Shown: positions 24,276 to 55,040, numbered from the stretch's first letter. The stretch is DNA of 64,000 nt from Oscillospiraceae bacterium (GCA_015068845.1 SVJR01000004.1:10779-74778); one strand, 5' to 3'. Notes: a model not told the origin generated them from the letters alone. Numbers and translations are program-made.

Positions 24276-24332
24276 TGTAGGGGGCATTCACGAATGCCCC
24301 GCAATACGGGCGATTCGTGAATCGCCCCTACA
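24276..24332. repeat. Family-B two-hairpin palindromic element (TGTAGGGG...CCCCTACA)
   Basis: tgtagggggcattcacgaatgcccc-gcaatac-gggcgattcgtgaatcgcccctaca. An inverted, near-identical copy lies at 27792-27848. Confidence 0.75.
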
Positions 24333-24335
24333 ATT

Positions 24336-24360
24336 GTCATTCCGAGCGATGCGAGGAACC
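24336..24360. repeat. Family-A repeat copy
   Basis: gtcattccgagcgatgcgaggaacc, abutting the family-B element and the stop codon of micro-ORF 1. Confidence 0.65.
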
Positions 24361-24361
24361 T

Positions 24362-24511
24362 TTACTCTTCTTCCTCATCGTCCTCCTCAGGATATTCGTC
24401 GTAAGAATCAATATACATATCCTCACATTCAAGCTGCAATTCTTTTAATTCTTCAATCACATCGGTCACCTTATTGAACATTTTCAAATACATCTTTTTG
24501 TAATTTGGCAT
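24362..24511 (-). CDS. Acidic micro-protein, 49 aa (paralog 1): MPNYKKMYLKMFNKVTDVIEELKELQLECEDMYIDSYDEYPEEDDEEEE
   Basis: Hand-translated and too short for the ORF track. TAGGAGGG RBS lies 7 nt upstream of the ATG. A paralog at 54268-54426 has the same first 17 residues. Confidence 0.55.
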   Translation of the reverse strand: MPNYKKMYLKMFNKVTDVIEELKELQLECEDMYIDSYDEYPEEDDEEEE

Positions 24512-24692
24512 ATTTAGCCCTCCTAATAAAAAAGTGTGTCACCGGAGTGACACACTCAAAAAACGCATCACTCTGGATAGTTCACGACAACTATTTTATT
24601 AAGCACCAAACGGAGTAATAAAACCAGAGGTACGCTTTTTGCATAGCGTAACTCCATTCGGTGCGAAATATTCATAATAAAATAATTGTCGT
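24512..24692 (-). promoter_or_regulatory. Structured 5' leader with an intrinsic terminator (candidate attenuator or riboswitch-like RNA), copy 1
   Basis: Minus-strand nested stems. P1: CACGACAATTATTTTATTA / TAATAAAATAGTTGTCGTG (19 bp). P2: GCACCGAATGGAGT / ACTCCGTTTGGTGC (14 bp). P3: TACGCT/AGCGTA. Then the terminator GTGTGTCAC-TCCG-GTGACACAC + T6, immediately before the RBS. Confidence 0.5.
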
Positions 24693-24698
24693 GTTTTT

Positions 24699-24727
24699 AT
24701 TATAACACCACATTACATAAATTGCAA
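24699..24727 (-). promoter_or_regulatory. Sigma-A type promoter TTGCAA-N17-TATAAT for the leader and micro-ORF 1
   Basis: Minus strand: TTGCAA (24722-24727), a 17-nt spacer, TATAAT (24699-24704). An identical 36-nt block (24719-24754) covers the -35 and the 27 nt upstream of it in both paralogs. Confidence 0.6.
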
Positions 24728-24760
24728 TAGTTTTCTGTAAAATTTTGTAAATTTTAGGTG

Positions 24761-24830
24761 AGATTCTTCACTTCGTTCAGAATGACAAACAATTTACAGT
24801 ATTGTCATTCCGAGCCTGTCGAGGAATCTT
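24761..24830. repeat. Inverted pair of family-A repeats
   Basis: agattcttcacttcgttcagaatgac (inverted orientation), a 17-nt spacer, then gtcattccgagcctgtcgaggaatctt. Confidence 0.65.
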
Positions 24831-24903
24831 ACTGCCCCCAAAGCCCCACCCTGACAAATATCGCCCAAATCTGCCAATTGGGGCGAAGAGGAGCAACCTT
24901 GAT

Positions 24904-38871: not shown

Positions 38872-38963
38872 GGAGAGGTGGTCGAGATGGTTTAAGGCGC
38901 AGCATTGGAAATGCTGTGTACGTTTATAGCGTACCGTGGGTTCGAATCCCATCCTCTCCTCCA
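38872..38963 (+). tRNA. tRNA-Ser (anticodon GGA) with a long variable arm and encoded CCA
   Basis: Acceptor GGAGAGG/CCTCTCC. Anticodon arm CAGCA-TTGGAAA-TGCTG. Variable arm GTACG..CGTAC. T-arm GTGGGTTCGAATCCCAT. A TTGATT-N17-TATACT promoter lies upstream. Confidence 0.9.
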
Positions 38964-54234: not shown

Positions 54235-54265
54235 AAAAAAGACAGTCTGCAGACTGTCTTTTTTT
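54235..54265. terminator. Bidirectional terminator
   Basis: AAAAAAGACAGTCTGCAGACTGTCTTTTTTT between convergent genes. Confidence 0.6.
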
Positions 54266-54267
54266 GT

Positions 54268-54426
54268 TTAAAAATTAAAATCATCTTCTTCGCCATCATC
54301 CTCAGGGGATTCGTCATAGGTGTCTATATACATATCCTCACACTCTACCTGCAATTCCATTAATTCTTCAATTATGTCGGTCACCTTATTGAACATTTTC
54401 AAATACATCTTTTTGTAATTTGGCAT
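54268..54426 (-). CDS. Acidic micro-protein, 52 aa (paralog 2): MPNYKKMYLKMFNKVTDIIEELMELQVECEDMYIDTYDESPEDDGEEDDFNF
   Basis: This is the C-terminal part of ORF-track entry 54268-54483. The start is placed at the ATG at 54426, preceded by TAGGAGGG. It is a paralog of 24362-24511. Confidence 0.6.
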   Translation of the reverse strand: MPNYKKMYLKMFNKVTDIIEELMELQVECEDMYIDTYDESPEDDGEEDDFNF

Positions 54427-54599
54427 ATTCAGCCCTCCTAAAATTAAAAAATGCGCCAACCGAAGCTGACGCATGAAAAACACACAGCTTCAGTTCTAAG
54501 TTGCTACACTTTTAACTACACCCAAAGGTACAGCGAACCAAAGTGTGCGTTTTTACCAAACGCACACCTTCAGGTGTATATATAAGTTAAAAGTGTAGC
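54427..54599 (-). promoter_or_regulatory. Structured 5' leader with an intrinsic terminator, copy 2
   Basis: Minus strand. P1: GCTACACTTTTAACT / AGTTAAAAGTGTAGC (15 bp). P2: ACACCTGAAGGT / ACCTTTGGGTGT (12 bp). P3: GTGCGTTT/AAACGCAC. Terminator: TGCGTCAGC-TTCG-GTTGGCGCA + T-run. Confidence 0.5.
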
Positions 54600-54605
54600 A
54601 TTGTC

Positions 54606-54634
54606 ATTATACCACTAAACTTTTAAAATTGCAA
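54606..54634 (-). promoter_or_regulatory. Promoter TTGCAA-N17-TATAAT for the leader and micro-ORF 2
   Basis: -35 at 54629-54634 and -10 at 54606-54611 (minus strand). The block 54626-54661 is identical to 24719-24754. Confidence 0.6.
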
Positions 54635-54673
54635 TAGTTTTCTGTAAAATTTTGTAAATTTGCAAATAAAAAT

Positions 54674-54822
54674 AGGCTCCCTTGTGTAAAGGGAGCTGTC
54701 GAACGCAGTGAGACTGAGGGATTGTTTCTTTATTTTTGTTGTTTCCTATTATTTTTAATTTAACAATTACAATCCCTCCGAGTTTGCTACGCAAACCCAC
54801 CTCCCTTTACACAAGGGAGGCT
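54674..54822. repeat. MITE-like element: imperfect inverted arms of about 50 bp flanking an AT-rich core
   Basis: The left arm is aggctcccttgtgtaaagggagctgtcgaacgcagtgagactgagggattg. The right arm is caatccctccgag...ctccctttacacaagggaggct. The arms share CTCCCTTGTGTAAAGGGAG and GAGGGATTG. Confidence 0.5.
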
Positions 54823-55040
54823 TTACCCATTAAAACTTTCTGCTAAATTGCTCATTTGAACTATATAACGATCTTTATCTGATTTTATAGTATTTTATTT
54901 CGTTCCCTCAGCAAACGCACCGAAAAGCTCGTAGTACTTTTGGCAAAACTCCTTGTCATTTTTGGCAATTGGTTTATCAGACAAACAGTGTATAAACGAA
55001 AAATAACATCTTTCAACATATTCTGCAATAGGTTTGTTTC

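Follow-up and report, generated by a model that had tools for sequence, protein, structure and literature searches.

Several described leader RNAs set alternative pairings against an intrinsic terminator. In protein-controlled leaders of Firmicutes, such as the pyr leaders (PyrR, B. subtilis) and the rplJL leader (L10(L12)4; PMC4538822), a terminator, an antiterminator and a third, antiterminator-sequestering structure compete, and the downstream gene is expressed by read-through only. The sequestering structure is in these cases a local hairpin that contains a conserved binding sequence for the protein. In the ZTP/pfl and M-box riboswitches, a structured domain lies 5' of the antiterminator and terminator, and a distal 3' segment pairs back and decides terminator formation. 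Riboswitch cores carry invariant ligand-contacting nucleotides. In the countertranscript-driven attenuation of pT181, pIP501/pAMbeta1 repR and pCF10 prgQ/Anti-Q, toehold-started pairing with the antiterminator strand triggers termination, with free sequence, kept structure and allowed variants, while trp-type attenuators are built of overlapping alternative helices (1:2, 2:3, 3:4...) that end in a terminator. Here we describe a leader RNA in a 64,000-nucleotide (nt) stretch of DNA from an Oscillospiraceae bacterium (GCA_015068845.1 SVJR01000004.1:10779-74778; the window), where two copies of one module each precede a gene for a small protein. We found that copy 2 of this module is a real 5' leader RNA, conserved and of a type as yet uncatalogued.

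The locus resembles each of these systems in layout and departs from each of them. Terminator, antiterminator and a sequestering structure compete as in the pyr and rplJL leaders; unlike those, the sequestering pairing is a long-range helix (X:Y) across a 28-33 base pair (bp) rod of free sequence, a fourth tier is present (hairpin P3, which holds a copy of Y), and no conserved binding motif is visible. A structured domain precedes the switch as in riboswitches, but it has no conserved unpaired positions, and its helices combine perfect pairing with hypervariable sequence. Compared with the pT181, pIP501 and prgQ systems, the counter segment lies in the same sense transcript, there is no antisense promoter, and the context is chromosomal rather than one of replicon control. 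In contrast to trp-type attenuators, the 5' strands hold no conserved leader peptide or ribosome-binding site (RBS). Permissive Rfam searches with copy 2, copy 1 and the type J leader (below) returned noise, with best scores of 13-27 bits against thresholds of 40-140, and the models for protein-controlled leaders (PyrR site, L10 leader) gave no match. At gathering thresholds, the curated families of Rfam 15, among them T-box, riboswitch classes, RAGATH and other candidate motifs, matched no leader in the whole window; the sole hit is a tRNA at 38872-38960 (+), which at 89 nt is long for the 71-position tRNA model. In our assessment, the element is a real terminator-based attenuation leader of uncatalogued form, well supported as a structured attenuator, part of whose mechanism we infer.

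Copy 2 lies on the minus strand and consists, from 5' to 3', of a TTACA repeat, a promoter, a nested hairpin, a linker that begins with AACU, a terminator, an RBS, an open reading frame (ORF) and a second terminator:

54643..54657, minus: direct repeat TTACA-N5-TTACA, read in the sequence, just 5' of the -35 box.
54606..54634, minus: sigma-70-type promoter; -35 TTGCAA at 54634-29, 17-nt spacer, extended -10 TGgTATAAT at 54614-06 (-10 hexamer 54611-06).
54502..54600, minus: rod-like nested hairpin P1>P2>P3, ~100 nt, beginning at or a few nt from the predicted transcription start.
54599-585 with 54517-503, minus: helix P1, GCTACACTTTTAACT/AGTTAAAAGTGTAGC; an extra U-A pair extends it to 54600/54502 (16 bp).
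54584-78, minus: 5' bulge J1/2, 7 nt, from the fold.
54577-66 with 54529-18, minus: helix P2, ACACCTGAAGGT/ACCTTTGGGTGT, 12 bp with two G.U pairs, from the fold.
54565-58 with 54552-45, minus: helix P3, GTGCGTTT/AAACGCAC, 8 bp, loop GGUAA at 54557-53, from the fold.
54543-36, minus: motif CTTTGGTT within J3/2, the 15-nt 3'-side "internal loop", from sequence reading.
54536..54554, minus: segment X, AAAAACGCACACUUUGGUU (= AAAAACGCACA-CUUUGGUU), running from the P3-loop A's through the P3 3' arm into the internal-loop motif CUUUGGUU.
54476..54495, minus: segment Y, AACUGAAGCUGUGUGUUUUU (= AACUGAAG-C-UGUGUGUUUUU), linker and antiterminator 5' arm, with X or the terminator 5' arm as alternative partners.
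54458..54495, minus: antiterminator hairpin AT, Y with AUGCG.CAGCUUCGGUU, the partner being the stretch from the terminator 5' arm through the loop into the first bases of the 3' arm.
54446..54474, minus: intrinsic terminator T, ATGCGTCAGC-TTCG-GTTGGCGCAT and T run (hairpin 54474-51), from the terminator scan.
54439-34, minus: RBS AGGAGG, ~6 nt past the T run and ~10 nt past the terminator.
54268..54426, minus: ORF of 52 amino acids (aa), ATG at 54426, stop at 54268, MPNYKKMYLKMFNKVTDIIEEL...acidic tail, from sequence reading.
54235..54264, minus: terminator closing the monocistronic unit, common to a convergent 324-aa gene, from the terminator scan.

The unconstrained minimum free energy (MFE) fold of copy 2 (RNAfold) is P1+P2+P3, at -69.7 kcal/mol and z -6.98, with 0 of 200 shuffles as good. 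The copy 1 leader (24698-24512, minus) takes the same fold (-70.3 kcal/mol, z -8.93), and the nested helices that a first-pass annotation had proposed from the sequence are therefore dominant in the thermodynamic folds of both copies. All three helices of copy 2 are present on the minus strand as that annotation had read them, and so are the promoter geometry, the terminator and the AACU linker start (sequence reading, promoter and terminator scans), as well as the complementarity of the linker segment GAAGCTG (54491-85) to CAGCTTC (54468-62). The strong promoter of copy 2 scored 10/12 with the TG extension in the promoter scan, and a 22-mer across the -35 box occurs at the two copies only (0 expected by chance). 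The TTACA-N5-TTACA repeat, which is identical in copy 1, retained in types G and H and located farther upstream in type E, is possibly a transcription-factor site or an UP-like element. A CodY box was considered for the promoter-proximal ATTTTACAGAAAACT, which overlaps the repeat and agrees with the consensus at 12/15 positions, and was kept as no more than a side remark, such matches being common and only mildly enriched in the window (11 found vs 6.4 expected).

Copy 1 has the same layout as copy 2:

24362..24752, minus: whole module.
24750-36, minus: TTACA repeats.
24727-22 and 24704-699, minus: promoter, -35 and -10.
24693-675 with 24602-583, minus: P1.
24664-651 with 24616-603, minus: P2.
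24650-645 with 24635-630, minus: P3.
24641-624, minus: segment X.
24576-557, minus: segment Y.
24576-542, minus: antiterminator AT.
24557-532, minus: terminator T, T run to 24528.
24524-519, minus: RBS.
24511-24362, minus: ORF, 49 aa.

The two copies share an identical 36-nt promoter block and ORFs that are ~88% identical, while only 31/58 of the P1+P2 columns are identical. A covariance model built from type-C leaders only (R1) recovered copy 1 at 57 bits (E 1e-11).

A genome scan for homologues found 15 loci in metagenome-assembled genomes of Monoglobaceae, Oscillospiraceae and other Clostridia, and further look-ups added more. The leaders among them, from related Oscillospirales and Monoglobaceae metagenome assemblies, fall into ten types that keep the topology with unrelated helix sequences:

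Type A: copy 1 and L033.
Type B: L003 and L032.
Type C: copy 2, L001, L020-28 and L031.
Type D: L004.
Types E and F: L006 and L007, two copies 10 kb apart.
Type G: a second, tandem copy in L001.
Type H: L034, beside the S10 operon.
Type I: L039.
Type J: MT835503.1.

The nested hairpin appears in the MFE fold of all 13 full-length leaders that were folded, which represent the ten types, and types E, F, G, I and J carry an additional side hairpin. The three leaders tested against shuffles (copy 2, copy 1 and type J) reached z -7 to -8.9. A covariance model from four type-C leaders found types A, B, D and H over their full length at 52-63 bits. In a nine-sequence alignment of types A-D, 97.3% of cells were paired, as compared to 75% in shuffles and 32-48% in slid controls, the alignment having been fitted to the model structure, which favours paired counts. 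Both sides had changed in 36 of its 46 pairs, and in 9 of the 10 pairs of terminator T across types. Helix cells held 39 G.U but a single A.C, which shows that pairing is selected on the sense-strand RNA. Thus the expectation that additional homologues would maintain the proposed pairs was borne out by folds, covariance-model matches and the ten types, and a functional structured leader whose topology persists while its helix sequences change is upheld by these homologues and by the MFE folds.

The 3' part of Y, GUGUGUUUUU (GUGYGUUUUU), is a near copy of the P3 5' arm GUGCGUUU, and Y as a whole is complementary to X. In copy 2, the X:Y duplex (RNAduplex) has 20-22 bp and -23.4 to -24.3 kcal/mol, with z -5.7 to -6.3 vs shuffles. 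The duplex formed in 12/12 sequences tested, which cover nine types, with 15-23 bp, -15.7 to -25 kcal/mol and z -2.8 to -6.3 vs shuffled Y. The partners differ between types: GCGUA..CUCUGG/CCAGAG..UGCGU in type A, CGCAC/GUGCG in type C, CGCAG(G)CUCC/GGAGCUGCG in type D, UGCAAAUUUC/GGAGUUUGCA in type F and UGCGAACUCC/GGAGUUUGCG in type I. Type B has CUCUGAUUU/AAAUCAGAG, a G-C to A-U exchange relative to type A with the terminator unchanged. The first-pass annotation had regarded the 3' internal loop as unpaired and its motif, CUYUGGUU, as shared. The first point does not hold, because the J3/2 motif is no aptamer loop but part of one strand of an alternative long-range helix, computed in every type, whose other strand is the antiterminator 5' arm. 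As for the second, the sequence is present in both copies, but it is not a conserved single-stranded element and is absent as a sequence in types D to J; the 8-mer CTYTGGTT is also not rarer than chance in the window (5 matches vs 5.4 expected). A T-box leader, which is recognised by a Stem I with specifier loop, the conserved T-box sequence and a UGGN bulge in the antiterminator, was rejected, since Rfam gave no T-box match and the UGGU of J3/2 has Y as its pairing partner and is missing from types B and D to J.

Y has a second partner. When transcripts that end ahead of the terminator 3' arm are folded, every type forms AT, at -16.6 to -18.4 kcal/mol in copy 2 and -10 to -18 kcal/mol across types, which supports the earlier suggestion that a linker segment can pre-empt the terminator. 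AT and the terminator change in concert (types A/B, E/F), as in GRAGCUG/CAGCUUC, GAGUGA/UCACUC and AGGAG/CUCUU. Terminator T (-14.6 kcal/mol in copy 2) stands between promoter and gene in copy 2, copy 1 and all ten types, with no promoter between; in copy 2 the gap from T to the RBS is too short for a separate promoter of the 52-aa ORF. Because the ORF has no promoter of its own and follows ~10 nt behind T, it would be made only on read-through of T. The four helices, their conservation and their mutual exclusivity are observed in silico, and we consider that copy 2 is probably a cis-acting transcription attenuator of a monocistronic small gene with these four mutually exclusive helices.

In this attenuator, transcription would start at the foot of the P1-P2-P3 rod, and the helices would form a chain of exclusions: P3, whose 5' arm is a sequence copy of Y, locks the G+C core of X and would block X:Y; X:Y, as an anti-antiterminator, would block AT; and AT, in which the terminator 5' arm pairs with upstream Y instead of closing T, would block T. 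With P3 closed, Y would be free, AT would form and polymerase would read through, whereas capture of X by Y would let T form and stop transcription. Pairing probably begins at two exposed toeholds, where the U5 of Y would bind the A5 in the P3 loop and the 5' part of Y would bind J3/2, and Y may then displace the P3 5' arm. The P1-P2 rod, free in sequence and strict in pairing, may hold X at one end and Y at the other end of a stiff helix that is bulged on its 5' side, and its geometry may set the rate of X:Y formation. The end states are predicted to be close in energy, with -57 to -67 kcal/mol for ON (rod with P3, and AT) and -67 to -79 kcal/mol, before any pseudoknot penalty, for OFF (P1+P2+X:Y+T).

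Several points, together with the fitting of the nine-sequence alignment noted above, weigh against this interpretation. On the A-D alignment, in which two rows were misregistered, X:Y was 89% paired as compared to 87% in shuffles and only 2 pairs were double-changed, so that no significant covariation was seen, because X and Y are fairly conserved within types A-D. We therefore relied on the per-sequence duplex statistics and on a ten-type permutation test, and it is from the more divergent types and from this test that the covariation support for X:Y comes. There, cognate X-Y energies summed to -203.5 kcal/mol vs -161 +/- 11.5 for permuted pairs, with 1 of 20000 permutations as low, in a comparison that does not correct for relatedness; the cognate Y is often not the best partner of its X, ranking from 1 to 7 of 10. 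Once P1 and P2 have formed, X:Y has to cross the rod of ~80-90 Angstrom as a pseudoknot, which ViennaRNA cannot score and whose steric feasibility is a back-of-envelope estimate; by that estimate, the 5-8 nt linker, the rest of J3/2 and the bulge hinge could just span the rod. Our choice of default state, ON or OFF, is a guess.

The succession of a structured 5' domain, AT and T is riboswitch-like, and one could imagine that occupancy of P1-P2-P3 by a metabolite or ion chooses AT or T, with cation-driven compaction bringing X to Y as in the M-box. However, when J1/2, J3/2 and the P3 loop were compared across types A to J, no unpaired nucleotide was conserved apart from the A5/U5 runs and the segments that pair with one another. 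P1 and P2 are long, almost perfect helices whose sequences are unrelated, Rfam searches opened to E 10 for copy 2 and to E 1 for copy 1 and type J gave no match, and the genes behind the leaders, which encode a small helical protein or form a methylase/nuclease operon, point to no common metabolite; a riboswitch is accordingly improbable in our judgement. Because no unpaired nucleotide is conserved beyond those explained by the pairings, a small-molecule aptamer is unlikely to provide the input, and we favour a factor or condition that would shift the race between P3 and X:Y. Candidates may be a structure-specific RNA-binding protein or a double-stranded RNA (dsRNA)-processing protein on the rod, an RNA chaperone, or the speed or pausing of RNA polymerase at the conserved U-run of Y. 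Processing could even be the main function: P1+P2 form a near-perfect duplex of ~28-33 bp, arbitrary in sequence, from the predicted 5' end, and dsRNA-binding enzymes such as RNase III recognise long near-perfect duplexes. The rod would then be an RNase III substrate or a 5' protective hairpin that acts in processing or stability, the terminated product a stand-alone small RNA, and the alternative pairings incidental. That explanation seems doubtful to us, as it leaves unexplained both the complementarity of X, Y and the terminator 5' arm in ten unrelated types and the promoterless ORF or operon that always stands behind T. The two functions are compatible, and rod cleavage could itself be the input of the attenuator.

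X and Y might also meet in trans, the X of a finished leader or mRNA, from the same copy or a paralogue, pairing with nascent Y to cause termination, which would yield negative feedback or cross-talk between copies. X has exposed toeholds, X:Y spans 15-23 bp, the rod poses no steric problem in trans, genomes hold two to three copies, and in this genome the Y of copy 1 binds the X of copy 2 as strongly as it binds its cognate X (-22.4 vs -21.2 to -21.4 kcal/mol). We hold this to be just as doubtful as a pure processing element, since the promoter scan found no antisense promoter within the leader, the 64-kb window holds no other complementary locus, and X and Y are always on one transcript, which gives cis pairing a large local-concentration advantage. 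Antisense-RNA attenuation of the pT181/pIP501 type was rejected, plus-strand promoter-like sites being present only at 54601-54650 and pointing away from the leader; a blastn-short search of the window with both leaders for trans targets of the variable arms gave self and arm-to-arm matches only. A conserved leader peptide was likewise discarded, because the short ORFs occur in single types and are not common to types. That the repeats act as a DNA palindrome (inverton, cruciform or repressor operator) instead of an RNA structure is by far the least probable explanation. It would account for P1 as an inverted repeat of 15-16 bp around ~70-85 bp and would recall the palindromic operators and divergent XRE-family gene of leaderless relatives of the small gene. 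The G.U bias, though, is strand-specific and sensible only for RNA; all homologues, including 9 independent assemblies of one allele, have one internal orientation; no recombinase adjoins either copy; and the repeats lie 3' of the promoter, not around it. An inverton in particular was excluded on the single orientation, the lack of a flanked promoter or of an invertase among the neighbours, and the G.U bias. Within the attenuator, we tentatively propose a ligand-free and portable toehold-mediated strand-displacement switch (P3, X:Y, AT, T) on a hypervariable dsRNA rod, as a new class of attenuator. In uncultured gut Oscillospirales it would gate a large uncharacterised family of acidic single-helix proteins, for which a divergent XRE-family repressor would do so elsewhere, and at least one methylase/nuclease operon. 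The rod would either act as a spacer or offer a dsRNA-recognising factor a handle, for example if co-transcriptional cleavage by RNase III removed X and licensed read-through; as a whole, we regard this proposal as possible and well short of probable.

The helix sequences appear to change by replacement. In related genomes, the genes on either side share 87-92% identity, and the divergence of the type-C leader matches this rate, whereas the copy-1 locus carries types A, B and D, with wholly different P1 and P2 between relatives. Type D resembles type H, which occupies a different locus. These patterns suggest that leader cassettes may be exchanged among paralogues, with promoter and ORF as homology arms. 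The idea that the helices of the two copies had drifted apart with compensatory change was thus right about the kept pairing, while the wholesale replacement of P1 and P2 fits cassette exchange better than drift. In L001:402-840, a third module (type G, with a long leader) lies in tandem directly 5' of the type-C module, and the window lacks it at the equivalent place. In L002:2912-2978 and L030:212-298, natural alleles from two related assemblies, a type-C leader has a ~96-nt deletion joined exactly at the direct repeat GTGCGTTT, with endpoints at the P3 5' arm and its copy in Y; X, the 3' side of both P1 and P2, and the greater part of Y are lost through the deletion, and the ORF is intact. 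In L007:2670-2700, the terminator of the preceding gene, GCGCATTCTCTTATTGAGGGTGCAC and a T run, is nearly identical to the type-F leader terminator 250 nt downstream, and the C-terminus of this gene's product looks hydrophobic by eye.

Both copies sit in housekeeping chromosomal regions, not in mobile elements. Copy 1 is surrounded by era, recO and a 4Fe-4S protein gene (minus) and by dnaG and sigA (plus), and copy 2 by short-chain dehydrogenase and ECF-transporter genes and by amidohydrolase and the 324-aa gene. A phage or plasmid origin was rejected: IMG/VR yielded no real match to the promoter motif, to two Y/T motifs or to the protein family, and the plasmid searches were empty. Palindromic repeats resembling repetitive extragenic palindromes or miniature inverted-repeat transposable elements flank both modules (54676-54830, 24755-24840, 24280-24355); examples are GCTCCCTTTACACAAGGGAGC with an inverted partner, GTCATTCTGAACGAAGTGAAGAATC-type units and one terminator-like site at 54696-54676. 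In copy 2, an in-frame GTG/ATG extension at 54427-54483 (minus) runs from within the antiterminator/terminator into the ORF and would give a 71-aa ORF; it is probably fortuitous, because copy 1 has an in-frame stop at that place.

The small protein has close relatives in only 7 clusters, and its wider family comprises 1418 clusters, none of which is named or carries a Pfam domain. The protein itself had no match in Pfam, PHROGs or NCBIfam, and a weak match to Tad4 (E 0.09) was dismissed. AlphaFold2 predicts a single helix over residues 4-39 and a disordered acidic tail (predicted local distance difference test score 83). Most family members lack the RNA leader (L005, L008-L019, L040; e.g., L009:2676-3171) and instead lie opposite a divergently transcribed XRE-family (helix-turn-helix) gene of 74-96 aa, from which palindromic operators separate them, the small gene again being monocistronic; a metagenome scan added leaderless, XRE-linked relatives only. 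Judged from gene arrangement, RNA leader and XRE repressor look like alternative gates of the same gene. The type J leader, in contrast, precedes unrelated genes. A long-type leader located at 334-545 of MT835503.1 (L041/L053; z -8.9), it is followed at 575-1723 and 1720-2829 by the genes of an operon, for an EcoRI-like adenine methyltransferase and for a GmrSD_N/HNH nuclease. Although filed as "UNVERIFIED: Bacteriophage sp.", the record looks bacterial, since its first 9 kb also encode a MATE and two ABC transporters. Because type J precedes this unrelated methylase/nuclease operon, the leader appears to be a portable, autonomous cis-regulatory module.

If this account is true, the leaders would constitute an attenuator family of unusual logic, so far uncatalogued, whose four nested alternative pairings include a pseudoknotted anti-antiterminator and which lacks a conserved ligand pocket. 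They would represent natural toehold-mediated strand displacement serving gene control, in a compact, sequence-programmable module of possible use in synthetic biology. The significance is limited by the narrow, uncultured host range. For the family of ~50-aa helical proteins in gut Clostridia, which has at least 1,400 clusters and is otherwise paired with XRE-family repressor genes, the leader provides a first handle on regulation, and the type J locus ties the same leader to a restriction-modification-like operon.

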